In this document: one piece after another, positions 6,061 to 35,752 of the stretch
Position numbering within the stretch: position 1 is the stretch's first letter
How the letters are laid out: the number at the start of each line of letters is the position of its first letter
NCBI GenBank assembly: GCA_963833025.1
Contig: CAWHWI010000003.1
Location: 618,338 to 682,337 of the forward strand
Length of the DNA stretch: 64,000 nt
Direction: 5' to 3'
Source of the DNA: an uncultured delta proteobacterium
GTDB lineage: Bacteria > Desulfobacterota > Binatia > Binatales > Binataceae
Notes under the pieces: model-generated
The model's database searches: none
What the model was told of the DNA's origin: nothing
Seen by the model: only the letters and a program-made list of their open reading frames with translations
Made by a program: the position numbers and the translations under genes

Positions 6061-8136
6061 TCATGCCCGCGCGACCGCGCGCACCAGCAGTATCAGCATC
6101 ACCGCGGCCAGGATTCCGTAGAGATATCCGTTAATCGAACCGGTCTGCAGCCGCCGGAGCCTGCCGCCAACGTCGAGCGTCAGGTTCGACGCGAAGTTCA
6201 CCAGCCCATCGACTATGTAATGGTCGAATAGTCCAGACAGCCAGGACAGAAATACTATTACCCGCGCCGCGAGATTAACTACTCCGTCAATTATATTCGT
6301 GTCGAACCAGGCCAACGCCCGCGTCGCGAATAGGTATGGCTGAATAACTACTCGATCGTAAAATTCATCGACATAGTATTTGTTGTATACCCATTCGTAA
6401 GGCACTCCGCCGAACATCTGGCTAAAGCGCGCGGGATCGAGCTTCTCTTGCCGATACATCAAATCAGCAAGGTACCATCCAGCGGCCACCACTATGAAAG
6501 TGACACCAGCGAACGTCCCCTCGACCAGATGATTGTGCATTCCCGACTCGGTAACGCGACGCGTGACGTCTGATCTGAGAATGGGCTCAAGGAATTCCTC
6601 GAACGGTTTGAACGCGATGATAAATTCCGGCCACTTCAACCATCCACCGACGACCGAAAGCGTGCCCAGCACAATCAGCACGTAAGCCATGGAGGGCGGC
6701 GATTCGTGCAGATGGTGCTCCTGCTCATGCGTGCCGCGAAATTCGCCGAAGAAAGTCATGTACACCTGACGCGACATGTAGAAGACGGTGAATCCGGCAC
6801 CTAGCAGCAGGAACGCCCACACGACGAAATGCCCATGCGAGAACGCCTGCCATATGATCTCATCTTTGGAGAAGAAGCCGGCAAACGGGAAAATGCCACA
6901 GAGCGCGAAGGTCGCTGCGACGAAGGTCCAGAACGTGATCGGCATCTTATGGCGCAGGCCGCCCATCTTGCGCATGTCCTGCTCGCCGCCCATCGCGTGA
7001 ATCACCGACCCCGATCCCAGGAACAGGCAGGCTTTGAAGAACGCATGCGTCATCAGGTGGAACACGCCGGCCGCGTATGCTCCGACGCCCATCGCCGCGA
7101 ACATGTATCCGAGCTGGCTCACCGTCGAGTACGCGAGCACCTTCTTGATGTCGTTTTGCGCGATGCCAATCGTCGCCGCGAACAGCGCGGTCATACCGCC
7201 CACCAGCGCAATCACGCCCATCGTGAAGGGCGACATCGAAAATAAAAAATTCAGCCGCGCCACCATGTACACGCCTGCCGTCACCATCGTCGCCGCATGG
7301 ATCAGCGCGCTGACCGGAGTCGGCCCGGCCATCGCGTCCGGCAGCCACACGTACAGCGGTATCTGCGCCGACTTTCCGGTCGCGCCGATGAACATCAACA
7401 GCGTGACGAATCCCACCAGCGTGTGCGCCGAATGGTAGCCTGCAAAATTTATCGGCACTCCCGACAGCAACGGCGCGTACTTCGCGACCTCGCGCGTCAC
7501 CAGCGTCGGATGCCCGAGCGCATCGAGTCCCGCGAACAAACTGTACAACGCGATCACGAACGCCAAGTCACCGACGCGGTTCACGATGAACGCCTTGTTG
7601 CCCGCCGTCGTGTTCGCCGTCACCTTGTACCAGAACCCAATCAGCGCGAACGAGCACAGCCCCACGCCTTCCCAACCCACAAACATCAGCCACAGGTTGT
7701 CGCCCAGCACCAGCACCAGCATCGCGAACGTGAACAGGTTGAGCCATCCGAAGAATCGCCAGTAGCCGTCGTCGTCGTGCATGTAGCCGGTCGAGTAGAT
7801 GTGAATCAGGCCGCCGACGCCGGTGATTATCAGCGTCATGATCATAGACAACGGATCGAGCCAGAACGCGATGTCGAGGTTCAGTCCGCCGACGTCGAAC
7901 CACTTCCACAAGTCGTCGAGCATGAAGCGGTTGTCCGGCGGCAACGTGAGCATCGCGAAAAACGCGCGCGCCGCCAGGATGAACGCCAGGATCACGACGC
8001 CGCATCCCACCAGGCTGATCGCGCGCTTGCCGAAGGTCTTCTGCAGCCACGCGCCGGCCAGGAAATTGACCGCCGCGCCCAAAAGCGGCAGCACCACGAT
8101 CAGTCGTATGAACGTAACCGGTATCGGGTGATCCAT
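6061..8136 (-). CDS. nuoL: NADH-quinone oxidoreductase subunit L
   Basis: 691-aa antiporter-like subunit with long C-terminal extension; position in operon. Confidence 0.93.
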   Translation of the reverse strand: MDHPIPVTFIRLIVVLPLLGAAVNFLAGAWLQKTFGKRAISLVGCGVVILAFILAARAFFAMLTLPPDNRFMLDDLWKWFDVGGLNLDIAFWLDPLSMIMTLIITGVGGLIHIYSTGYMHDDDGYWRFFGWLNLFTFAMLVLVLGDNLWLMFVGWEGVGLCSFALIGFWYKVTANTTAGNKAFIVNRVGDLAFVIALYSLFAGLDALGHPTLVTREVAKYAPLLSGVPINFAGYHSAHTLVGFVTLLMFIGATGKSAQIPLYVWLPDAMAGPTPVSALIHAATMVTAGVYMVARLNFLFSMSPFTMGVIALVGGMTALFAATIGIAQNDIKKVLAYSTVSQLGYMFAAMGVGAYAAGVFHLMTHAFFKACLFLGSGSVIHAMGGEQDMRKMGGLRHKMPITFWTFVAATFALCGIFPFAGFFSKDEIIWQAFSHGHFVVWAFLLLGAGFTVFYMSRQVYMTFFGEFRGTHEQEHHLHESPPSMAYVLIVLGTLSVVGGWLKWPEFIIAFKPFEEFLEPILRSDVTRRVTESGMHNHLVEGTFAGVTFIVVAAGWYLADLMYRQEKLDPARFSQMFGGVPYEWVYNKYYVDEFYDRVVIQPYLFATRALAWFDTNIIDGVVNLAARVIVFLSWLSGLFDHYIVDGLVNFASNLTLDVGGRLRRLQTGSINGYLYGILAAVMLILLVRAVARA

Positions 8137-9588: not shown

Positions 9589-10779
9589 CTATATAGTCGG
9601 ATTGAAGTATACTTCCATCCGCGAACGCCGGAGATAGTATATAACCCGCTGAGTAAACACCGCTGCCAGCGCAATCGCGGCCGCCAACATGATATACCCC
9701 ATCGCCGCGTTGCCGTCGGGCCAAATAGCTACCCACACCGCGGTTCCGATCATATCCACAAACGAAATCGGCACGAAGTATTTCCAGCAAAGCGTCATTA
9801 GCTGATCGATACGCACTCGCGGCAGCGTCGCGCGTATCCACATCGAAACGAACACCAGGATTAGTACTTTGACGTTGAATGTGATCGCCTGAAGTATATT
9901 CATCGCGACTACATTGTTCGTGATGTGCGGGAACTGCCATCCGCCGAGGAACAGCGTCGCGATTATCGCGCCGATGATGAACAGGTTGCCCCATTCCGCC
10001 ATGAAGAAGAACAGGTAGCGCATCCCGCTGTACTCAGTCGCGAAACCCGCTACCAGTTCCGACTCCGCTTCCGGCAAATCGAACGGCGTCCGGTTGCCCT
10101 CGGCCAACGCCGATATATAAAGGATGTTAGCCGCGACGAACGTGAACGGATTCGCGAACAAAAACCAATGCTGCGGCGCCCAGCCCTGCGCGCGAATGAT
10201 TCCCTGCATCGAGAGCGTGCCCGTCATCAGCACCACCGGGAATATCGAAAGCCCCGCCGGTATCTCGTAGCTGACTATCTGCGCCGCCGACCGGATTCCA
10301 CCGATCAGCGACCACTTGTCGTTCGACGCCCATCCCGCCATCAGCACGCCGACCACGGTGAGCGCAGTCACCGACGTCATATAGAGGATGCCCACGTTCA
10401 GGTCCGCCAGTATCAGCGACGACGAGAACGGCATCACCGCCCACGGCAGCGTGAACGCCAGCATCACCAGGTACGGCGCCATCTTGAACAGGGGAGCGTC
10501 GGATTCGTCGGGAATGATGTCTTCCTTGCAGACGTGTTTTACGCCGTCCGCCAGCCACTGGAGGAAACCCTGCGGGCCGACGCGATTCGGACCGACCCGC
10601 GACTGAATTCGCGCCCACACCCGCCGCTCCGCCCAGCTCACGATTCCCGCGAACGGAAACGCGACGCCCAGGAAGACCACCGCGCTCATCACGAACACGA
10701 CGATCGCGGCAACCAGGTGCGGCGACGCGTTCTTGCCGAACGCGCCCGACGCGATCAGATTGTGTACCAGTGTCTCCAT
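9589..10779 (-). CDS. nuoH: NADH-quinone oxidoreductase subunit H
   Basis: [24 protein letters not shown] motif and polytopic membrane protein. Confidence 0.93.
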
Positions 10780-10785
10780 CGAGGA

Positions 10786-11905
10786 TTAGCGATCGATCTC
10801 CGGCGCAATCACGTCCAGGCTCGCGATTAGCGTGACCAGGTCCGCGATCATCAAGCCCGCGCTCAGCTTCTGGATGATTCCCATCGCCGCAAACGATCCC
10901 GTACGTACGTGCACGCGCCACGGATACCCGGTGCCGTCGCTCACGAGGTACCATCCCATGTCGCCGCGTCCGCTCTCGAGCCTGAATCTGACATTCGCCG
11001 GCCGGCGGCTTGAAATTGCGCGCGACTTTCGCGAGCACCGGCCCCCCGGGAATCTTGTGCAGCGCCTGGCGCAGGATCTTCGACGACTCCGCCATCTCGC
11101 GAATCCGCACCACGTAGCGATCCATCGAGTCGCCGAGCTTGCCCCAATGCCCGTCGCCAATCGGCACGTCGAACTCGAACTCGGGATACACCGAATACGG
11201 GATGTCCTTGCGGATGTCCCACTTGATTCCGCACGCACGCAAATTCGGCCCGACCAGGTTGTAGTTGACGGCTTCCTCCGGCGTGATCACTCCGACGTTC
11301 GCCAGCCGCTCGATATAAATTTTGTTCCACGAGATCAGCGCGTTGTATTCCTCGAGAATTGGATCGAAATGATCGAGGTACGCGAGCGCCTTCTCGCGCC
11401 ATCCGGGCGGCAAGTCCCACGCCACGCCGCCGATTCGCATGTAGTTGAACGTGAGCCGCGCGCCGCACAGCTCCTCGATCAAATCGTTGATCATCTCGCG
11501 CTCGCGAATCGCATGCGTGAACGGCGTCACCGCGCCGATATCCATCGCCATCGCGCCCACCGAGAGCAGATGCGACGCGATTCGATTGAACTCCGCCGCG
11601 ATCACGCGACAGTACTCGCCGCGATGCGGCACTTCGATTCCCGCGAGCTTCTCGCACGCCATGCCCCAACCCTGGTTGGTGAACATCGCGCACACGTAAT
11701 CGACGCGATCGGTGTACGGCATGAAGCCGTGGTAGCCGACCTTTTCCGCAATTTTCTCGATCGACCGATGCAGGTAGCCGACGTCGGGGATCGCCTCGCG
11801 CATCACCTCGCCGTCGGCCCGCACCACGAAGCGCAGCACCCCGTGCGTCGACGGATGCTGCGGGCCCATGTTGAGCGTCATTTCTTCGGTGTGCAGCGTG
11901 CTCAT
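10786..11905 (-). CDS. nuoD: NADH-quinone oxidoreductase subunit D; reading frame is interrupted by an apparent single-base insertion near 10990-10996
   Basis: N-terminal ~300 aa ([20 protein letters not shown]...NFKPPAGE) are in one frame. The conserved C-terminus ([20 protein letters not shown]...[13 protein letters not shown], stop at 10786) is in another frame. The junction is gaa-t-gtc. Confidence 0.85.
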
Positions 11906-26240: not shown

Positions 26241-27854
26241 TCAATCCGGATCGATCAGCACGCCCGGATTAAGAATCCCGCGCGGATCGAGCGCTCGCTT
26301 CGCGGCCTTCAGCGCCAGCGCGAATCCATCTGGACGTTGACGATCGTACCACGGCCGATGATGTCGCCCGACCGCATGATGATGCGTGATCGTGCCGCCC
26401 AGCTTTATGAGCCTGTCCGACACCGCAGCCTTTATCTCATCCCATTGCTCGATCTCGGAGCCGCGCTTCCCCGGCGCGAGGATCGTGTAGTACGGCGCCG
26501 GCCCGTCGGGATAAACGTGCGTGAATCGGCACGTCACCGTGCCCTTGCCGCATACTCGCGCGATCGCCTCGCGCGCGCACTCCATCATCTGGCGATGGAA
26601 TTCCGGGAATCGCTCCCACGTGATCGACGTCTCGAACGTGTCGCTCACCATTCCCATCGCGGCCACCGTGTCCATCAGGTACGGCGCGTTCAGAAACGCG
26701 TTGCGCCACGCGCCCGCCGATCCCTCGTGCGTCGCCTCGGCGTCGGTGCGAGTCTTCGCCGCATCGGCCGGAATTTTTCCGCCATGATCGGCGCAGCACT
26801 CCAGCGCCCGCTTCATCCACGGCTCCAGCGGATGGTCCGCGGACTCGAATGCGAGCACCAGCACGGCCTCGTCGCCGTTACCCGCGCCGGAGTTGAACGC
26901 CTCGCCTTCGTCGAGCACGCGGCAGTTCGCCGGATAGATTCCCGCCTGCGAAATCTGTCGCACCGCGTCCGCCGCCTTGAAAATACTCGGAAACGGCACC
27001 GACGCGCCCGCGCGAAACGTCGGCCGATCCTGAAGCCGCATCCACGCCTCGGTGATGATGCCGAGAATTCCCTCGGAGCCGATGAACATCCGATCCGGGC
27101 TCGGACCCGCGCCCGAGCCGGGCAAGCGGCGCGACTCGACGATTCCCGCCGGCGTCACGACACGCAGCGATTCGACGAAGTCGTCGATATGCGTGTAGAG
27201 CGTCGCGAAATGCCCGCCAGAGCGTGTCGCGATCCATCCGCCGAGGGTAGAGAACTCGAACGACTGCGGAAAATGCCGAATCGTCAGGCCATGCGGCTTC
27301 AACTGCGCGTCGAGCGCCGGACCGTACACCCCGGCCTGGATTCGCGCTGCGCGCGAGACCTTGTCGACCTCGACGACCTTGCCCAAGTGCATCAGATCGA
27401 TCGACACCGCGCCGCGATAGCGGTCGCCTGCGGGCGGCTCTACGCCACCGACGACGCTCAAGCCGCCGCCATATGGCATTGCCGCAATATTCGCGCCGTC
27501 GCACCATTCGAGCACGCGGATCAACTCTTTCTCATCGCGCGGAAATGCGACGACGTCGATCGGATTCGGGTAGTCGCGCCGGAACGCGCGCCTTATATCG
27601 CGCGAGCCCTTGCCGTACGTATGTCCCGCTCGCTCGTGCGTGGCCGTCGAGCAAATCCCCTCGAGCGCCGACGGCGGCTTGACGCGCGGCGCGCGCAGAT
27701 TCAGCTCGCTTTCCTTCGGCGGCGGCGTGAGCTCGAGCGGCCCGAGCCCGAATCGCTTGGCCATTCGCTCGGCCATATGCTTTTGCTGTTCGGGAGTCGG
27801 CCCCTGGTCCTCGTAGCCCCATCCCCAGAACTTTCGCTTGCGATTCTCGGCCAT
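26241..27854 (-). CDS. FAD-linked oxidase (alkyldihydroxyacetonephosphate synthase-like)
   Basis: N-terminal KFWGWGYEDQ motif and FAD-binding PCMH domain features. Confidence 0.78.
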   Translation of the reverse strand: MAENRKRKFWGWGYEDQGPTPEQQKHMAERMAKRFGLGPLELTPPPKESELNLRAPRVKPPSALEGICSTATHERAGHTYGKGSRDIRRAFRRDYPNPIDVVAFPRDEKELIRVLEWCDGANIAAMPYGGGLSVVGGVEPPAGDRYRGAVSIDLMHLGKVVEVDKVSRAARIQAGVYGPALDAQLKPHGLTIRHFPQSFEFSTLGGWIATRSGGHFATLYTHIDDFVESLRVVTPAGIVESRRLPGSGAGPSPDRMFIGSEGILGIITEAWMRLQDRPTFRAGASVPFPSIFKAADAVRQISQAGIYPANCRVLDEGEAFNSGAGNGDEAVLVLAFESADHPLEPWMKRALECCADHGGKIPADAAKTRTDAEATHEGSAGAWRNAFLNAPYLMDTVAAMGMVSDTFETSITWERFPEFHRQMMECAREAIARVCGKGTVTCRFTHVYPDGPAPYYTILAPGKRGSEIEQWDEIKAAVSDRLIKLGGTITHHHAVGRHHRPWYDRQRPDGFALALKAAKRALDPRGILNPGVLIDPD

Positions 27855-27997
27855 CGGATTGGTCCTCGCGATACTCGACGTTGCTGACAGCCGCGATTCT
27901 GCGCCCGCCGCGCCCGCGGGGGCAACCGCATCGTTCTCGCTTGCGCGCGAGTTGGCGTCGTCGTATCAGTCGAATATCTTCGCCGAGGTAGACCATC

Positions 27998-28885
27998 ATG
28001 AGCGATATCGACACGACAATTTCCGCGGCGGATCCACATCCGCGCAAAAAACTCGAGCTCATCAACACCTGGATTTCGTATGCCGACACCGGCGCCGGGG
28101 ATCCGATCGTGTTTCTCCACGGCAACCCGACCTCGTCGTACTTGTGGCGCAACATAATCCCGCACCTCGCGCCGCATGCGCGATGCGTCGCGCCTGATCT
28201 CATCGGGATGGGCGCGTCCGGGCGGTCTGCGACCGGCGCGTATCGCTTCGAGGATCATTCGCGGCACCTCGACGCCTTCTTCGAGGGCCTCAATCTCAAG
28301 CGCAACGTCACGCTCGTCGTGCACGACTGGGGCTCCGCGCTGGGCTTTCACTGGGCCGCGCGCCATCCCGAGTCCGTCAAGGGAATCGCTTACATGGAGG
28401 CGCTCGTCAGGCCGCTGCAATGGTCGGAATGGTCGAATGCCGCCGTCAACGTCTTCAAGGCGCTTCGCAGTCCGGCCGGTGACGACATGATTTTGAAAAA
28501 TAATTTTTTCGTCGAGGTCATCCTGCCGCGCAGCGTCATCCGCAAGCTCAGCGATGAGGAAATGAGCGCGTACCGAAAACCTTTCCTGCAGCCTGGCGAG
28601 TCGCGGCGCCCGACGCTCACCTGGCCGCGCGAAATACCGCTCGAAGGCGAGCCCGCCGACGTCGTCGCGATCGCCGACCGCTATTCGCGATGGCTCGAAA
28701 AAAGCGCGATACCGAAGTTGTTCGTCAACGCCGACCCCGGCGCCATCCTGACCGGCGCTCAGCGCGAGTACTGCCGCAGATGGCCGAATCAGCGCGAGGT
28801 GACGGTCAAGGGCATCCACTTCATCCAGGAAGATTCGCCCCACGAGATCGGACGCGCGCTCGCCGATTGGTACAAATCGATCTGA
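27998..28885 (+). CDS. haloalkane dehalogenase-like alpha/beta hydrolase
   Basis: HGNPTSSYLWRN and VVHDWGS motifs of haloalkane dehalogenase subfamily II. Confidence 0.83.
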   Translation: MSDIDTTISAADPHPRKKLELINTWISYADTGAGDPIVFLHGNPTSSYLWRNIIPHLAPHARCVAPDLIGMGASGRSATGAYRFEDHSRHLDAFFEGLNLKRNVTLVVHDWGSALGFHWAARHPESVKGIAYMEALVRPLQWSEWSNAAVNVFKALRSPAGDDMILKNNFFVEVILPRSVIRKLSDEEMSAYRKPFLQPGESRRPTLTWPREIPLEGEPADVVAIADRYSRWLEKSAIPKLFVNADPGAILTGAQREYCRRWPNQREVTVKGIHFIQEDSPHEIGRALADWYKSI

Positions 28886-28904
28886 AAAAAATAGTTGCGG
28901 GCCA

Positions 28905-28958
28905 CCACTTGACATGCGCCGTGACCGGATGTATTTAACCTGTAGGTTATTTAACTGA
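28905..28958 (+). promoter_or_regulatory. putative sigma70-type promoter with overlapping palindromic and direct-repeat operator candidate for the ArsR-family regulator
   Basis: TTGACA (28909-28914), a 17-nt spacer, then TATTTA. Palindrome TAACCTGTAGGTTA (28936-28949) follows. tatttaac occurs twice (28932, 28948). Confidence 0.4.
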
Positions 28959-29339
28959 ATGGTTCAGCAGCACACATCGTCCGAGCACCTCAACGCGACT
29001 TTCTCGGCGCTCGCCGATCCCACTCGCCGCGCGATCCTCGCTCGCCTCGCGTCGGGCGAGACTTCCGTGTCCGAGCTGGCCGAGCCCTTCGAGATGAGCA
29101 TGCCCGCCATCTCCAAGCACCTGAAGGTGCTGCAGCGCGCGGGCCTGATCGAACGCGGCCGCGAGGCGCAATGGCGTCCGTGCCGGCTCGCCGCCGGTCC
29201 GCTCAAGGACGCCTCGGACTGGCTCGATCGCTATCGCCGTTTCTGGGAGGAGAGCTTCGATCGCCTCGAGGATTATCTGCGCGAGCTGCAGAAGCGCGAA
29301 TCACAAAAGAAGGAGACCAAAAATGGCCGCAAAAAGTAG
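28959..29339 (+). CDS. ArsR/SmtB family transcriptional regulator
   Basis: FSALADPTRRAILARLASGETSVSELAE...SMPAISKHLKVLQRAGLI wHTH. Confidence 0.85.
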   Translation: MVQQHTSSEHLNATFSALADPTRRAILARLASGETSVSELAEPFEMSMPAISKHLKVLQRAGLIERGREAQWRPCRLAAGPLKDASDWLDRYRRFWEESFDRLEDYLRELQKRESQKKETKNGRKK

Positions 29340-29844
29340 CGCCGCCGCTCAATCCGACTCGCGCGAGCTGGTCGTCACCCGCGTCCTCGACGCGCCGCGC
29401 GCCCTGGTGTGGAAAGCACTCACCGAGCCCGAGCGCCTCGAGCACTGGTGGGGGCCGAAGGGCTTCACTTCAAAGGTCCACAAGCTCGAGCTGCGCCCCG
29501 GCGGCATCTTCCTCTACAGCCAACGCACGCCTGACGGCCGCGAGATGTGGGGCAAATGGGTCTATCGCGAAATCGTCGCGCCCGAGCGGCTGGTGAGCGT
29601 CTCTTCCTTCACCGATGAGAAGGGTAATTCGATCCCGCATCCTTTGATCCCGAACTGGCCGCTGGAGATTCTGGGCGTGTCCACGTTCACCGAGCGTCAG
29701 GGCAAGACCACGATGGTCGTGCGGATGGTCCCGGTAAACGCGACCGAGTCGGAGCGCAAGACTTTCGAAGAACACCTCAATTGGATGGAAGAGGGTTTTG
29801 CCGGAACTCTCGAAAAGCTCGACAAATACCTGGCGTCACTCTGA
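29323..29844 (+). CDS. SRPBCC/AHSA1 (Aha1-like) domain protein, paralog 1
   Basis: RVLDAPRALVWKALTEPERLEHWWGPKGF signature. Confidence 0.8.
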   Translation: MAAKSSAAAQSDSRELVVTRVLDAPRALVWKALTEPERLEHWWGPKGFTSKVHKLELRPGGIFLYSQRTPDGREMWGKWVYREIVAPERLVSVSSFTDEKGNSIPHPLIPNWPLEILGVSTFTERQGKTTMVVRMVPVNATESERKTFEEHLNWMEEGFAGTLEKLDKYLASL

Positions 29845-29878
29845 GGCATCATCACCAACAGGCTGAAGGAGAGCAGCT

Positions 29879-29989
29879 ATGCAACTCAATCCCTATCTGA
29901 ACTTCGATGGCAACTGCGCCGCCGCGTTCAAGTTCGTCGATCAATTCGGCACGCCCTGGATGATCAACTGCGAGGGCGAAGCGCGATGA
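29879..29989 (+). pseudogene. 36-codon remnant of a PhnB/VOC-like gene (N-terminus only), translationally coupled (ATGA) to next gene
   Basis: MQLNPYLNFDGNCAAAFKFVDQFG matches the conserved N-terminus of PhnB-like VOC proteins, then stops. GAAGGAG SD upstream. Confidence 0.5.
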
Positions 29990-30480
29990 CTTCCGCAAGG
30001 CCGACGATATCCGATTCCGCGCCGGAAGATACCTCGGATCGCGAGATCGTCGTCACCCGAGTTTTCGACGCGCCGCGAGCGCTCGTGTTCAAGTTGTGGA
30101 CTGATCCGCAACATGTCGCGCGATGGTGGGGGCCGAATGGCTTTAGCACCACGACTTATGAGATGGACGTGCGGCCGGGCGGCGTGTGGCGCTTCGTCAT
30201 GCACGGACCCGACGGCCGGGATTATCAGAACAAGGTCGCATATGTCGAAATCGCCGAGCCCGAGCGACTGGTTTACAAGCATGTCTCCGGTCCGCAATTT
30301 CAAATGACGGTGACCTTTGCCGACGCCGGCGACAAGACGAGGCTCACGGCGCGGATGCTCTTCGAGTCAGCCACCCTGCGCAACAAGGTCATCGAAGAAT
30401 TCGGGGCCGTCGAGGGACTCAAGCAGACTCTCGGACGCCTCGACGATTATGTGAACCATACTAAGGAGAGCATCCGATGA
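29986..30480 (+). CDS. SRPBCC/AHSA1 domain protein, paralog 2
   Basis: RVFDAPRALVFKLWTDPQHVARWWGPNGF. Confidence 0.8.
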   Translation: MTSARPTISDSAPEDTSDREIVVTRVFDAPRALVFKLWTDPQHVARWWGPNGFSTTTYEMDVRPGGVWRFVMHGPDGRDYQNKVAYVEIAEPERLVYKHVSGPQFQMTVTFADAGDKTRLTARMLFESATLRNKVIEEFGAVEGLKQTLGRLDDYVNHTKESIR

Positions 30481-30929
30481 CTTCAAACACCGAAGTTACA
30501 GTTGGCGATCGCGAGCTCACCATCACGCGCATCTTCGACGCGCCCCGCCCGCTGGTTTTCTTCGCGTGGTCAAGACCCAAACATCTGATGCGTTGGTTCG
30601 CGCCCAACAACTTCACCGTGTCGGAGTGCGAGATGGACTTCCGCGAGGGCGGAAAGTTCCGGCTGTGCATGCGCGGCTTCGGCAAGGACCATTGGATGAA
30701 CGGCGTCTTTCGCGAAATCGTCAAGCCGGAGCGAATCGTCTGGAGCAGCTTGTTGGATAACGACACCAACGAAGTGGTCACGACGGCGACGTTCACCGTT
30801 ATGGGCGGCGGCAAGACCATGCTCACAGTGCATCAGACCTACTCGATCGAAACTGATTCGACCCGCGGTGCACCACAGGGATGGTCCGAAACCCTCGATC
30901 ATCTCGCCGAATTACTGGCGGACGCCTGA
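30477..30929 (+). CDS. SRPBCC/AHSA1 domain protein, paralog 3
   Basis: RIFDAPRPLVFFAWSRPKHLMRWFAP; ATGA overlap with paralog 2. Confidence 0.8.
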   Translation: MTSNTEVTVGDRELTITRIFDAPRPLVFFAWSRPKHLMRWFAPNNFTVSECEMDFREGGKFRLCMRGFGKDHWMNGVFREIVKPERIVWSSLLDNDTNEVVTTATFTVMGGGKTMLTVHQTYSIETDSTRGAPQGWSETLDHLAELLADA

Positions 30930-30954
30930 CGGAATCGACTGAAGGAGAATTATT

Positions 30955-31425
30955 ATGGGAGCAGCAGTTAACCTGGTAAGCGAGCCTGCGGATCGCGTGC
31001 TTAAAATCGAGCGCGTCTTCGACGCGCCGCGCAGTCTCGTCTTCAAAGCCTGGACCGAGCCCGAGCACATCGCGAAATGGTGGGGTCCGCGCGGCTTCAC
31101 CAGCACCGTTCTCAAAAACGATCTGCGCCCGGGCGGCGCCTATCGAATCCACATGCGCGGACCCGACGGCGATCACTGGACGCAGGGCATCTATCGCGAA
31201 GTGGTCCCTCCCGAGCGGCTGGTCATGGTCGGGAGCTGGGCCGATGCGCAGGGCAATCCAACGCGCCCCGAAACGACGCTGACGCTGCTGTTCGAGGATC
31301 TCGGCGGCAAGACCAAGCTCACTCTGCACAACGCGGTCTTCGAATCGGTCACGGCGCGCGATTTGCACCAGGGCGGATGGACCAGCGCGCTCGATTGTCT
31401 CGCCGAATACCTGGCAACTGCCTGA
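30955..31425 (+). CDS. SRPBCC/AHSA1 domain protein, paralog 4
   Basis: RVFDAPRSLVFKAWTEPEHIAKWWGPRGF. Confidence 0.8.
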   Translation: MGAAVNLVSEPADRVLKIERVFDAPRSLVFKAWTEPEHIAKWWGPRGFTSTVLKNDLRPGGAYRIHMRGPDGDHWTQGIYREVVPPERLVMVGSWADAQGNPTRPETTLTLLFEDLGGKTKLTLHNAVFESVTARDLHQGGWTSALDCLAEYLATA

Positions 31426-31449
31426 ACTACGCTGACGCTTTTCCTCGAG

Positions 31450-32580
31450 GTGATTATGGAGCACGCCGAATCAATCACGCCACAAAGCGGCGACCTGATC
31501 GTGATTGTCGGGACCGTCAAGGGCCTGTTCATTTTCAGCAGCGATCGCAATCGCCGCCAGTTCCGCATCGCCGGGCCCTACTTCAAGGGTCAGGCGGTTT
31601 ATTCGACGGCGTATCTTCCGGACGGGCGAGCGCCGCGCATCCTCGTCGGCCACATGAGTATGCACTGGGGCGCGCTGGTGAGCTGGTCGGACGATTTCGG
31701 CGCGAACTGGCACGAGCCCGACGACGGCAATGTCAAGTTTCCCGCCGGCAGCGGTCTCACGTTGAATGCGGTGTGGGCGCTCGAGCCCGCCCCGCTCATC
31801 GGCCCTGACGTAGTATTCGCGGGCGCCGATCCCGCCGCGCTCTATCGCTCCGATGATCGCGGCGAGACGTTTCATCCCGTCGAGTCCCTGCTCAATCATC
31901 CCGAGCGTCCGTACTGGATGCCCGGAGCCGGCGGGCTCTGCCTGCATACCATCCTGCCCGACCCGCGCGATCCGAAGCGTATCCTCGTCGGCATTTCGTC
32001 GGCCGGTATGTATCGCAGCGACGACGGCGGTGAGTCGTGGACGCGCCGCAACAAGGGCGTGAAGATGGAGGGCGGTCCGCCGCACGCGCCGCATTTCGGT
32101 CCGCAATGCGCGCACAAGATGCGCTACGATGCGAAAAATCCCGCGCGCATCTACCTCCAGAATCACCCCGGCGTCTATCGCAGCGACGACGGCGGTGATT
32201 CATGGATCGATATCGCCGCAGGACTGCCGTCGGTGTTCGGCTTTCCCCTGGTCGCCCATCCCAGCCTCGGCGATACCGCGTACCTGATACCGCTCGAATC
32301 CGATCAGTTTCGCGTGCCGCTCGAAGGCGCCGTCAAGGTCTGGCGAACGCGCGACGCCGGCGCGTCATGGGAGCCGCTCGGGGTCGGCCTCCCCCAACGC
32401 GACTGCTATTTCTCCGTGCTCCGCGACGCGTTCGCGTCCGACCGCCTCTCTCCCGCGGGGCTCTATTTCGGCACGCGCGGCGGACAACTGTTCGCGTCGC
32501 GCGACGAAGGAGAGAGTTGGAATTCGATCGCGGATTGGCTGCCCGCGGTGCTGTGCGTGAAAGCCGTCGAGGTCGCCTGA
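31450..32580 (+). CDS. BNR/Asp-box repeat protein (sialidase/Ycf48-like beta-propeller)
   Basis: Repeated YRSDDGGESW / YRSDDRGETF Asp-box motifs. Confidence 0.7.
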   Translation: MIMEHAESITPQSGDLIVIVGTVKGLFIFSSDRNRRQFRIAGPYFKGQAVYSTAYLPDGRAPRILVGHMSMHWGALVSWSDDFGANWHEPDDGNVKFPAGSGLTLNAVWALEPAPLIGPDVVFAGADPAALYRSDDRGETFHPVESLLNHPERPYWMPGAGGLCLHTILPDPRDPKRILVGISSAGMYRSDDGGESWTRRNKGVKMEGGPPHAPHFGPQCAHKMRYDAKNPARIYLQNHPGVYRSDDGGDSWIDIAAGLPSVFGFPLVAHPSLGDTAYLIPLESDQFRVPLEGAVKVWRTRDAGASWEPLGVGLPQRDCYFSVLRDAFASDRLSPAGLYFGTRGGQLFASRDEGESWNSIADWLPAVLCVKAVEVA

Positions 32581-32588
32581 GACCGGTG

Positions 32589-32873
32589 ATGCTCTTTCAT
32601 CTGCCATCTGCGCTCCGTCGATTTGCCCGCGACAGCGAGGTCGTCGAGATGCGGCTACCGCTCGACGCGCGAATGACGATTGGCGAGGCCTTCGTGATGC
32701 TCGGCCGCGACTATCCCGGAATCCGGCAGCGCGTGCTCGACGATCAGAACAATATCCGCCGCCACGTCAACGTATTCGTCAACGGCGAGAACGTGCGCTT
32801 CATGCAAGGTGGCTCGACGCAGGTTTCGAATAGTTCCGAAGTGTGGATTTACCCGGCGCTTTCAGGTGGATGA
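32589..32873 (+). CDS. MoaD/ThiS-family ubiquitin-like protein ending in Gly-Gly
   Basis: 94 aa, ...VNVFVNGENV...SEVWIYPALSGG-stop; 8 nt after the BNR gene stop. Confidence 0.72.
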   Translation: MLFHLPSALRRFARDSEVVEMRLPLDARMTIGEAFVMLGRDYPGIRQRVLDDQNNIRRHVNVFVNGENVRFMQGGSTQVSNSSEVWIYPALSGG

Positions 32874-32956
32874 CTTGTCGATTTCGGGATCCGTCGAACG
32901 ACTATACAGCAGAGAAGTCGAGAGACTGAGTCAAAGTATTTCGCGAGGATAAAGTC

Positions 32957-33205
32957 ATGCGGATCAGCAAACATCACTTAGGCATCGGTTTCGAAGTGTG
33001 GAACGCTCAACAGAGCTGGTTCTGGTTCGTGGCCAATACCAGTCGCAACGGCATGATTGGCGCGGCCGCTACCGAATCAGATGCGGTGCGCGAGGCGCAT
33101 GCGTCGATCGAAGAGATTTCCAATTCGAATATGCGGGCAGGCTGGGAATGTTCGCTCGGCAAGCTCGCGAAGTATCTCGCGTCTGTCTGCGACGCGACCG
33201 CATAA
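32957..33205 (+). CDS. hypothetical small protein
   Basis: 82-aa ORF with GAGGA SD 8 nt upstream; no recognisable family. Confidence 0.45.
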   Translation: MRISKHHLGIGFEVWNAQQSWFWFVANTSRNGMIGAAATESDAVREAHASIEEISNSNMRAGWECSLGKLAKYLASVCDATA

Positions 33206-33214
33206 TAGCTCAAA

Positions 33215-34105
33215 ATGCAAAACCCGCAGGAATACTATAAGAGCGAAGGGCCAATGACAGCTCTGGGAGCGCACGCGGAAGAATTCCGCGCGATGCCCAC
33301 GGACCTCGCCTCGCTATGCGAGGTCGTACAGGGCTTGCTGATTCATCGCGATATTGCGCCATGGCTGTACGGCCTCACGCTGACCGAGGCGCAGCGCGAC
33401 GACGGCAACATCCGCCCGATCGCGAAAATGCTGACGCGCATTCACGAGCTCGATTCGCGCCCGATCACGAGCGCGCGCGACGTCGGCCACCGGCTCCCCA
33501 GCGTATGCCGTCATTTTTCGCTGATGCTCAGCGCCATACTCCGGTATCAGGGCATACCGGCGCGGCCGCGATGCGGCTTCGGCGCCTACTTCACGCCGGG
33601 CAAGTTCGAAGACCATTGGGTGTGCGAGTATTGGAACGCCGGCGAGAAGCGCTGGATATTGGTGGACGCGCAGCTCGACTCGATTCAGCGCAAAGCCTTG
33701 AACATCAATTTCAACCCGCTCGACGTGCCGCGCGACCGCTTCATAATCGCGGGCAACGCGTGGCAGATGTGCCGCACCGGCGCCGCCGATCCCGCCAACT
33801 TCGGGCTCACGCACGTCCACCTGCAGGGGATGTGGTTCATCGCCGGCAACGTGGTCCGCGATCTCGCGTCGCTCAACAAAATGGAACTGCTACCATGGGA
33901 CGTCTGGGGCTTGATGGATATGAACGACGCCGCACTGACCGACGAGAAAAAATCCCTACTCGATCGCGTCGCAACTCTAACCCTCGCGGGCGACAACGCG
34001 TTCCCCGAAGTCCGCGCAATCTACAACGACGATCGCCTCCGCGTCCCACCACTTGTCTTCAACGCACTGCGCAACGCCCCCGAACCAATCGCGAGCGAGA
34101 ACTAA
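33215..34105 (+). CDS. transglutaminase-like cysteine protease domain protein (start may be ATG 33254)
   Basis: CRHFSLMLSAILRYQGIPARPRCGF...HWVCEYW...WILVDAQ, consistent with the Cys-His-Asp transglutaminase core. Confidence 0.72.
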   Translation: MQNPQEYYKSEGPMTALGAHAEEFRAMPTDLASLCEVVQGLLIHRDIAPWLYGLTLTEAQRDDGNIRPIAKMLTRIHELDSRPITSARDVGHRLPSVCRHFSLMLSAILRYQGIPARPRCGFGAYFTPGKFEDHWVCEYWNAGEKRWILVDAQLDSIQRKALNINFNPLDVPRDRFIIAGNAWQMCRTGAADPANFGLTHVHLQGMWFIAGNVVRDLASLNKMELLPWDVWGLMDMNDAALTDEKKSLLDRVATLTLAGDNAFPEVRAIYNDDRLRVPPLVFNALRNAPEPIASEN

Positions 34106-34115
34106 CGCTTAACAA

Positions 34116-34230
34116 GTTCTAACAGGGACGAAGTCCCGCATCTTCTCTTGGTACTGCGTGCAGGGGTCACCCCTGCCGAAGGAAGCGTGAAACCCACCGC
34201 GGGTTTCACATTCAATTGAGTTCCTCCGCC
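34116..34230 (+). repeat. multi-hairpin intergenic repeat element, copy 3 (B-C-D)
   Basis: gttctaacagggacgaagtcccgcatc...gcaggggtcacccctgccgaaggaagcgtgaaacccaccgcgggtttcacattcaattga. Confidence 0.85.
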
Positions 34231-34240
34231 CTCTCCTGTC

Positions 34241-35752
34241 TCACCGACCGCCCGCTGCTGGCGCCGGCGCCGCCGGGCGCGACGGCTTTGGCATGTGGAT
34301 GTAGAGCTTGTCCGCCGCCGGACGGCCGTCGGTATGCATCGACGGCGGACGCATCGCGTACTTCACTTCGCGCGCGTGCTCGGCGAACTGCCGATCCGGG
34401 TTGTACACGCTGTTGAACTTCCACAGCATCTTGATGAAGTTGGTCTGCCCCTTCAGCGCGAGCTTGCCCGCGATCGACGCTACCGACTTCAGCGCCGCGA
34501 ACCCAAGATGCTTGCGGTTGAGCACGTCCTGCGTCTTCACCAGCTCCTGGTAGAACTGCAGCAGCGGCAACTTGGTCGGCAGCACCGCGTGCTGGATGTC
34601 GTACAGCCGGTAGTCGAGCGTCGTCAGCTTGCGCGATTCGGTGAACCACAGCTCGGTGCCGGGATACGGCGTCGCCACCGTCAGATGAACGATCTCGGGG
34701 ATGCTGATCGCCCATTCGCGAATCACCTCGAAGCGCTTCACGTCCCACGACGGGTCCGCGATCAGGTTGACCGCGACGGTCAAGCCAATCTCGCGCGCCA
34801 CTTCGAGCGCCTTGAAGTTGACGCCCATCGACGAGCGCTTGCGATGCAGCTTCAGGCCTTCTTCGTCGATCGCTTCGAGGCCCAGGAACATGTACTCCAT
34901 GCCGAGCTTGCGCCAGTAGCGGAACACTTCCGGATTGCGGCACAGTACGTCGGCGCGAGTCTCGAGGTAGTACTGCTTTTTGATTTTGCGCTTTTCGATT
35001 TCGTGCCCGATCGCGAATCCATGCTCCGGATGGATGAACGCGACGTCGTCCACGATGAAGACGTTCGGCTCTTTGATCGACAGCATGTCTTCGGCCGCCG
35101 CTTCCGGCGTCGATTTGCGGTAGCTGCGTCCGTAAAACGTCCACGCGCTGCAGAACGAGCAATCCCACGGGCATCCGCGGGTGAACTCGATCGACGCGCA
35201 CGGATCGAGCACGCCGATAAAATATTTGTTGCGCCGGCGCCCGAGATCGCGCGCGGGAAAAAACTTGTCGAGATCGTCGAGCATGACCGGCGTCGGCCCG
35301 GAGCCTTGCGTCGTCAACACGCCCGGAACTTTGCCAATCGAGCCGGTGCCGATTGCGTCGAGGAGCATCGGGGTCGCCGTCTCGCCCTCGCCGCGGATGA
35401 CCGCGTCGATCGCGCCGTCCGCATGCTCCAGAATTTCGTCGGCGACGAAGGAGCCGCTGTGCCCGCCGGTGAAGACGAAGCAGTCCTTCATCAGGCGCTT
35501 CACGTCCTTGGCGAGATCGATCACCTCGGGCACGTTGGCGAGGTAGTTGAGCGAGAAGCCGACCGCATTGGGCCGGAAGCTCTCGAGCTCGGCAAACAGA
35601 TCACGATGCTTGAAAATCTGCAGGTCGAGGATTCTGACGTCATGGCCGGCCGCGCGCGTGGCCGCCGCCACCCGCTCCATTCCCAGCGGTTCGAGCCGCA
35701 AATAAATCTCGCTGTACATAAGCGGACTTGGATGTACGAATAGGACCCGCAT
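34241..35752 (-). CDS. B12-binding domain radical SAM protein (candidate hopanoid-associated HpnJ-like)
   Basis: N-terminal B12-binding region (VLFVHPSPLMYSEIYLRL) and CxxxCxxC motif FTRGCPWDCSFC. Lies near hpn genes. Confidence 0.78.
   Translation of the reverse strand: MRVLFVHPSPLMYSEIYLRLEPLGMERVAAATRAAGHDVRILDLQIFKHRDLFAELESFRPNAVGFSLNYLANVPEVIDLAKDVKRLMKDCFVFTGGHSGSFVADEILEHADGAIDAVIRGEGETATPMLLDAIGTGSIGKVPGVLTTQGSGPTPVMLDDLDKFFPARDLGRRRNKYFIGVLDPCASIEFTRGCPWDCSFCSAWTFYGRSYRKSTPEAAAEDMLSIKEPNVFIVDDVAFIHPEHGFAIGHEIEKRKIKKQYYLETRADVLCRNPEVFRYWRKLGMEYMFLGLEAIDEEGLKLHRKRSSMGVNFKALEVAREIGLTVAVNLIADPSWDVKRFEVIREWAISIPEIVHLTVATPYPGTELWFTESRKLTTLDYRLYDIQHAVLPTKLPLLQFYQELVKTQDVLNRKHLGFAALKSVASIAGKLALKGQTNFIKMLWKFNSVYNPDRQFAEHAREVKYAMRPPSMHTDGRPAADKLYIHMPKPSRPAAPAPAAGGR

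Follow-up and report, generated by a model that had tools for sequence, protein, structure and literature searches.

What kind of unit is formed by a gene for an ArsR-type regulator that is followed by four genes for AHSA1/SRPBCC proteins, and does the haloalkane dehalogenase gene immediately upstream belong to it? The question is raised by a 64-kb stretch of contig CAWHWI010000003.1 (assembly GCA_963833025.1) from an uncultured delta proteobacterium assigned to the Binataceae; this whole stretch is termed the window here, and its positions are numbered from its first letter. We conclude that the locus is a larger-than-average example of the ArsR-COG3832 module and no new kind of system, and the module identity and architecture are assigned with high confidence. 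The overall model, which we consider reasonably probable, is that of an autorepressed operon with a non-metal, organic or thiol-reactive inducer and four small-molecule-binding proteins. Its functional part, in which autorepression, inducer, co-transcription and ligand binding are all deduced, is put forward more tentatively, at somewhat less than an even chance.

In 2009, Makarova, Wolf and Koonin presented the ArsR-COG3832 (Aha1) module as a widespread, chromosomally enriched, toxin-antitoxin (TA)-like "mobile stress response" pair (PMC2701414), in agreement with the statement in the original prediction, made from the letters alone, that combinations of ArsR and AHSA1 genes are common. The locus in the window shares with this module a non-metal ArsR gene that stands directly upstream of an AHSA1/START-fold gene on the same strand and overlaps it by 17 nt, a chromosomal location and the affiliation with a lineage known for module expansions. 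It differs in that the 2009 paper dealt with a two-gene pair, whereas one ArsR gene is combined here with four AHSA1 genes and the relic of a VOC gene. A stand-alone pair is thus not what the window contains, and most of the loci surveyed by us are likewise arrays.

Every gene named in the original prediction was recovered at its place and with the identity proposed for it when the list of open reading frames (ORFs), Pfam and NCBIfam were consulted. The ArsR gene (28959-29339, forward strand, as are all genes of the array and the genes flanking it) is followed by P1 (29323-29844, 173 aa), P2 (29986-30480, 164 aa), P3 (30477-30929, 150 aa) and P4 (30955-31425, 156 aa). All four proteins match the AHSA1 model PF08327 (90.0, 109.6, 96.3 and 107.8 bits for P1 to P4, cutoff 22.1 bits) over model positions 1-124 of 125, P2 also matches PF10604, and the paralog profile matches the AHSA1-type PDB entries 1xuv, 2lf2 and 1xfs. 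A hidden Markov model (HMM) built from the genes of the locus detected no other AHSA1 gene and no other ArsR gene of the same type in the window. The N-terminal motif that was said to unite the four proteins is real, albeit with deviations, as P1 reads RVLDAPRALVWKALT and P3 has WFAP in place of WWGP. Pairwise identity among P1-P4 amounts to 33-46% only, while orthologs of P2, P3 and P4 in related genomes are 76-96% identical (P2 76-92%, P4 84-95%), and since ortholog identity far exceeds inter-paralog identity the paralogs are indeed ancient. P1-type genes, with 55-96% identity, occur in several related loci (L085, L087, L089 and L095) and are missing from L001, L086 and L092. Ratios of nonsynonymous to synonymous substitution rates (dN/dS) of 0.14-0.43 for P1, 0.17-0.20 for P2 and 0.12-0.24 for P4 (0.12-0.43 for P1-P4 overall) establish that all four paralogs are under purifying selection.

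The junctions are those given in the original prediction, with an overlap of 17 nt between ArsR and P1, an ATGA shared by P2 and P3, and 25 nt between P3 and P4. The accompanying description of the four paralogs as translationally coupled does not hold for all of them, as P1 and P2 are 141 nt apart. AAGGAG stands 7 nt 5' of the P1 start and also precedes P3, P4 and a short ORF located between P1 and P2; with the exception of ArsR, each gene in the run from ArsR to P4 has its own Shine-Dalgarno (SD) sequence, and the distances between the genes are short or negative. A terminator scan revealed no terminator-like site of any weight between the genes from ArsR to P4 or between P4 and the BNR/Asp-box gene downstream, in a consensus promoter and terminator search in which terminator counts did not rise above those in shuffled sequence. 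Because of this lack of intervening sites, co-transcription of ArsR through P4, and into the BNR gene, appears plausible.

The regulator belongs to the ArsR/SmtB family of winged helix-turn-helix (wHTH) proteins, matching PF01022 (HTH_5, 53.5 bits, cutoff 22), PF12840 (HTH_20, 59 bits) and NF033788 (90.9 bits, cutoff 55). The last of these models carries the name "metalloregulator ArsR/SmtB family", and together with the original prediction, which suggested metal stress, it speaks for an operon that copes with metal or metalloid stress under a classical ArsR/SmtB metal sensor. The protein itself does not bear this out. There is no cysteine in its alpha3 region (VSELAEPFEMS) and no His/Asp/Glu site in alpha5; its only cysteine is C75, its only histidines are H5, H10 and H54, and none lies beyond the recognition helix. 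What it does possess is the signature of a subfamily that we aligned from 52 ArsR proteins of many phyla encoded directly upstream of AHSA1 or VOC genes, namely a C-terminal Y-x3-W-x3-[FL]DRL-x2-YL helix and a WRPC motif in the wing. The C-terminal extension is present in all 52, and its residues Y92, W96, [FL]100, D101, R102, L103, Y106 and L107, each found in 45-52 of the 52, are without exception present in the window ArsR, while an alpha3 CxC motif occurs in none of the 53 sequences in the alignment. The closest solved regulator, PDB 3f6o, a structural-genomics entry, aligns with residues 9-109 (E=1.4e-23) and likewise carries the C-terminal extension. Constraint on the ArsR gene (dN/dS 0.02-0.08) is much stronger than on P1-P4.

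The window ArsR is probably related to Rv2034 of Mycobacterium tuberculosis, judging from the shared architecture and from the Rv2034 sequence. Rv2034 represses its own expression by binding to a palindrome, is insensitive to Zn, Ni, Co, Cd, Pb, Cu and Mn, needs its single cysteine for DNA binding and is co-expressed with Rv2035 and Rv2036 (PMC3338718). The Rv2034-Rv2036 operon and the locus in the window have in common a single-cysteine regulator of the ArsR type, which is an autorepressor in the case of Rv2034 and a putative one in the window, an overlapping AHSA1/START gene in second place, a palindrome near the start codon and, as observed for Rv2034 and probable for the window ArsR, insensitivity to metals. 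On the other hand, the mycobacterial operon contains one START gene only and a different third gene, and its operator CCGTAAGT-N4-ACTTACGG is unrelated to TATTTAACCT-N2-AGGTTATTTA in the window. Makarova et al. already stated that the ArsR proteins of the module are devoid of metal motifs and preferred a role in resistance or stress over that of a true TA system; they found the module to be depleted on plasmids (PMC2701414). Furthermore, neither the ORF list nor Pfam indicated a transporter or reductase in the cluster. The window ArsR is thus best placed in a non-metal subfamily; a role in metal sensing is unlikely, the metal part of the earlier stress interpretation is not upheld, and an operon built around a classical metal sensor has to be regarded as extremely improbable. 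Similar clusters from cultured organisms bear the same misleading name in RefSeq/GenBank: on pSymB of Sinorhizobium meliloti (ArsR-SRPBCC-GFA) and on a Nostoc plasmid, an ArsR that is 66-70% identical to that in the window and annotated as "metalloregulator ArsR/SmtB family" is followed by SRPBCC. These clusters differ from the window in that they have only one SRPBCC gene, which in Nostoc is a fusion of two domains, and in that other accessory genes are present, e.g., of the GFA family.

Where transcription of the array would start was deduced from a phylogenetic footprint, for which the regions upstream of ArsR from 10 related Candidatus Binatus loci were aligned. The original prediction had placed a promoter within 28905-28958, and the footprint supports this by an invariant CTTGACA-N17-TATTTA arrangement with an overlapping pseudo-palindrome. 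The candidate sigma-70-type promoter (28909-28937, forward strand) consists of a -35 element TTGACA (28909-28914), a 17-nt spacer and a -10 element TATTTA (28932-28937); CTTGACA and GTATTTAAC...AGGTTATTTAAC-TGA-ATG are invariant in the 10 loci, and the 17-nt spacer is variable. A consensus scanner did not call this promoter, the cause being the A at the end of the -10 element. The -10 element is overlapped by the 22-bp pseudo-palindrome TATTTAACCTgtAGGTTATTTA (28932-28953, forward strand; core TAACCT-N2-AGGTTA), found by repeat search, which ends 5 nt before the ATG. Its arms are invariant and its center is variable among the 10 loci; no second copy exists in the window, and 0 occurrences would be expected by chance. 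TATTTAAC also forms a direct repeat (28932-28939 and 28948-28955). By analogy with the palindromic operator of Rv2034 (PMC3338718), the pseudo-palindrome is proposed as a candidate ArsR operator.

The same comparison bears on the haloalkane dehalogenase gene (27998-28885), which ends 73 nt upstream of ArsR on the same strand. The enzyme belongs to the LinB/DmbA-like HLD-II subfamily (NF002938 equivalog, 437 bits, cutoff 241), with PDB 7pw1 (E=2.6e-116) and LinB 1cv2 (E=5e-108) as closest solved relatives. N43, D110, W111, E134 and H274 are present in its sequence, and from established knowledge of LinB and DhaA we take these residues to constitute the catalytic pentad. Its position immediately upstream, separated from ArsR by a gap without terminator, and the retention of this adjacency in several Binatus genomes would suit an organohalide catabolic unit centered on the dehalogenase, which ArsR and the SRPBCC proteins would serve, e.g., by substrate delivery or product binding. 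However, the conserved promoter and candidate operator lie between the two genes and stay with ArsR, while the flank proximal to the dehalogenase varies or is replaced across the 10 loci. In addition, a methyltransferase gene on the opposite strand is inserted between dehalogenase and ArsR in locus L086, the gap widens to about 580 nt in L092, the adjacency is kept only among Binatus relatives, and in a cross-phylum set of 80 loci (described below) dehalogenase-like matches were found in two cases only, both on the opposite strand. As the promoter and operator travel with ArsR, a gene intervenes in L086 and no more than 2 of the 80 loci feature a dehalogenase-like gene, the dehalogenase gene is a neighbor and not a member of the ArsR unit, and the link is lineage-specific. 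The adjacency that had been pointed out is therefore correct, while membership in the unit is not supported, and a catabolic unit of this kind is highly improbable.

Between P1 and P2, the 141-nt gap holds a 36-codon ORF (29879-29989, forward strand; MQLNPYLNFDGNCAAAFKFVDQFGTPWMINCEGEAR) that had been overlooked. At the syntenic position in L001, an intact 137-aa PhnB-like VOC gene (PF06983/PF00903) is present, and because the short ORF equals residues 1-19 joined to residues 121-137 of the L001 protein, it is the relic of a VOC gene left by an in-frame internal deletion. It has no match in Pfam and falls far short of a full VOC domain of about 115-140 aa, but retains the AAGGAG ribosome-binding site, the ATG and an ATGA overlap with P2. 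In L085, the closest relative (ArsR 99% identical), a relic of merely 15 codons (6887-6964) has likewise kept ribosome-binding site, ATG, frame and ATGA overlap. The frame and overlap retained in these relics may serve to maintain translation into P2, or chance may be the cause.

Close homologs of ArsR and of the AHSA1 proteins bear the names Candidatus Binatus or Binataceae, and in these relatives the chromosomal slot that extends from the dehalogenase gene to the genes for the BNR protein, a ThiS-like protein, an 82-aa protein and a transglutaminase-like protein differs in content, with two to four AHSA1 genes and with or without VOC. The order ArsR-P1-dVOC-P2-P3-P4 of the window, in which dVOC denotes the relic, recurs in L085 with the shorter relic. 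L001 features ArsR-VOC-P2-P3-C-P4, in which C is a fifth type of AHSA1 gene that is not represented in the window, L092 ArsR-VOC-P2-P3-P4 and L086 ArsR-VOC-P3-P4. L089 starts with ArsR-P1-VOC-P2 and then runs off the contig end. In L087 and L088 the order is ArsR-P1-P3-P4, and the gap between P1 and P3 (6884-7015 and 1464-1595, respectively) holds a scar of P2 that translates in one frame to ..FERLVYMHVSE.. A further observation concerns L002, where ArsR and VOC are called as one product of 276 aa (6136-6966) with the ArsR HMM match split in two, which suggests a frameshift or sequencing error and not a true fusion.

Exchange seems to have contributed to this variation as well. P3 shares 94% nucleotide identity with its L001 ortholog (10492-10941), compared to 78-86% for the flanking P2, P4, ArsR and BNR genes, and its synonymous divergence (dS) between the window and L001 is 0.12 as opposed to 0.64-0.85 for its neighbors, with a sharp step near 30490. 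This marked departure from the flanking genes suggests recent recombination or cassette exchange of P3 between lineages. Taken together, the contents of the slot would derive from a larger gene set by differential loss, supplemented by exchange. The original prediction saw ligand-binding diversification in the four-member array, but differential loss fits better, given type C and the intact VOC gene in relatives and the deletion scars in the window and in relatives.

A more far-reaching view can be built on the P3 exchange, the scars left by deletion of VOC and P2, and the type C gene, which are offered as examples of cassette turnover: ArsR-headed AHSA1 arrays might be chemical immunity loci, i.e., fast-turnover repertoires of small-molecule "sponges" whose SRPBCC and VOC cassettes are gained, lost and swapped by recombination under one thiol-bearing ArsR (Cys75) that senses electrophilic or natural-product stress. 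We consider this quite unlikely; if it were true, array content would track the toxins that a lineage meets in soil.

How unusual an array of four genes is was assessed in two surveys. The first was anchored on AHSA1 and covered 80 loci, drawn from species genomes in GTDB that span bacterial phyla and archaea, which were scanned with HMMs. ArsR was present in 54 clusters, of which 7, 23, 17, 4, 2 and 1 contained one, two, three, four, five and six AHSA1 genes, respectively; as this sample favors long arrays, 1/n weighting was applied, after which about 6% have four or more. A PhnB-like VOC gene occurred in 17 of the 80 clusters. The second survey was anchored on ArsR and comprised 80 metagenome loci, which include close relatives and are not independent; among the 30 with at least 2.6 kb of downstream sequence, one, 9, 7, 12 and one had zero, one, two, three and four AHSA1 genes, respectively. 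Two or three AHSA1 genes are thus the norm, while arrays of four, at about 3-13%, lie in the upper tail and sets of five or six are also found; longer arrays are exemplified by L007, L010, L015 and L040. The claim that a four-member array is unusual is accordingly true in a mild sense, as regards the upper tail, and not true of arrays as such. The module was encountered in many phyla and archaea, including hundreds of plasmid copies.

Many proteins homologous to P2 (P0004, P0006, P0011, P0017 and P0090) are 240-290 aa long and contain two AHSA1 domains per polypeptide. These were considered as ArsR-AHSA1 fusions, and this was rejected, as they are actually tandem AHSA1-AHSA1 fusions or read-throughs; it appears that tandem AHSA1 genes sometimes fuse.

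If the locus is an operon of the module, the role of its AHSA1 proteins has to be considered. The main rival to our model assigns the SRPBCC proteins a regulatory role, as partners or ligand sensors of ArsR, such that a ligand-bound AHSA1 protein contacts the C-terminal extension and frees the operator, the paralogs widening the range of signals. Overlap between ArsR and the first AHSA1 gene, by 17 nt in the window, is frequent (spacing of -16 to -4 nt at many of the 52 loci) and fits matched stoichiometry, and only AHSA1-linked ArsR proteins carry the conserved C-terminal extension. Fusions of DNA-binding and START domains exist, e.g., Rv0576, for which the START domain has been suggested as sensor (PMC13525633), and a generic regulatory role was weighed by Makarova et al. 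(PMC2701414). Yet the gene following ArsR is VOC and not AHSA1 in L001, L086 and L092, so the overlap is not obligatory, and a P1-type gene may reside at any array position in other phyla; for the latter reason, the idea of P1 as a fixed "partner" beside ArsR was rejected. All in all, we regard the sensor-partner role as unlikely, although more probable than any other alternative.

A second proposal regarding the AHSA1 proteins is a type II TA-like module in which they would be multiplied toxins and ArsR the antitoxin and autorepressor. The module was predicted to be TA-like from its genomic distribution (PMC2701414), and Rv2035-Rv2034 is among the listed TA pairs of M. tuberculosis and, according to published reports, is induced in persister cells (PMC3968373, PMC7650669). 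In the only published test that was found, a direct kill-rescue assay, however, a COG3832 protein from Stenotrophomonas maltophilia was not toxic in Escherichia coli or in S. maltophilia (PMC7650669), and Makarova et al. themselves favored a resistance role for a module that is depleted on plasmids (PMC2701414). An array of two to six "toxins" that shares one "antitoxin" and is interspersed with VOC genes moreover does not resemble a TA system, and P1-P4 are without PADLOC matches, so that this possibility retains hardly any probability. A defense system in general was also tried and rejected: PADLOC matched ArsR with generic wHTH models only (Csa3/CasR), and neither P1-P4 nor the genes further downstream gave a match.

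The preferred model of an autorepressed, non-metal operon can be outlined as follows. One sigma-70-type promoter (28909-28937) would drive ArsR, P1, the decayed VOC gene, P2, P3 and P4, and transcription may run into the BNR and ThiS-like genes. An ArsR dimer would bind the 22-bp pseudo-palindrome over the -10 element and repress its own operon, in analogy to Rv2034. The inducing signal would probably be an organic or thiol-reactive compound and not a metal, perceived either via the conserved single Cys75 or indirectly via one SRPBCC protein. Of the 52 AHSA1-linked ArsR proteins from many phyla, 41 share Cys75, which lies within the WRPC motif of the wing. As an observation in its own right, Cys75 is a candidate thiol switch, to be compared with the single cysteine of Rv2034 that was reported to be necessary for DNA binding. 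The four diverged helix-grip SRPBCC proteins most likely bind and sequester or neutralize different hydrophobic or reactive small molecules, e.g., xenobiotics or natural-product toxins, and the array would be a snapshot of a slot whose content varies as cassettes are acquired, lost and exchanged. A precedent from the same superfamily is CalC, a START-fold resistance protein (PMC13525633). CalC, CalU16 and CalU19, which are enediyne self-sacrifice proteins, and YndB from Bacillus subtilis are, like P1-P4, small cytosolic helix-grip proteins, and they bind hydrophobic natural products (PMC13525633, PMC2701414).

Several points weigh against this model. CalU16 shows no more than marginal similarity (E=3.5e-5, about 56 residues in the N-terminal third), and the closest AHSA1 structures in the PDB come from structural genomics and carry no annotation. 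The -10 element TATTTA is weak, and the ArsR gene lacks a SD sequence (28944-28961). Cys75 is missing in 11 of the 52 subfamily members and is therefore excluded as a universal sensor. Finally, VOC and type C have been lost in some lineages, so that parts of the array are dispensable. With respect to the missing SD sequence, the predicted 5' untranslated region of ArsR is only about 15 nt long, and for this reason translation of ArsR may be leaderless or SD-independent.

Downstream of the array, a gene for a BNR/Asp-box beta-propeller protein (31450-32580, BNR and Sortilin-Vps10 matches) starts 24 nt after P4 and is followed after 8 nt by a gene for a ThiS/MoaD/SAMP1-like small protein with a GG end (32589-32873; PF02597; NF041918 SAMP1, 60.8 bits, cutoff 60). 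In every Binatus locus these two genes stand behind the array, the ThiS-like gene being syntenic, and a BNR gene is also located after the ArsR-AHSA1 unit in L084 and L131; the BNR gene may be co-transcribed with the array. A further ORF (32957-33205), predicted to encode 82 aa, has no Pfam match, and its last 19 residues are similar to the C-terminal helix of AHSA1 proteins (hhalign probability 75%). In L010, L095, L096 and L104, ArsR-AHSA1 arrays are likewise followed by this ORF, by the transglutaminase-like gene or by both. Rfam gave nothing within 27000-35000 at E<=0.1.

Few uncharacterized regulator-effector pairs in soil bacteria are as widespread as the ArsR-AHSA1 module, which is still misleadingly annotated as "metalloregulator" or listed as a TA pair. 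The locus in the window adds no new principle but shows that the usual unit is an array and not a pair, a prevalence that is not contained in the paper by Makarova et al., and it warns against counting the adjoining haloalkane dehalogenase among the components of the module. The Binatus loci supply a conserved promoter and a candidate operator that are directly testable, and the differing cassette sets that close relatives hold in one and the same slot provide natural variation to guide the choice of paralogs for ligand work.

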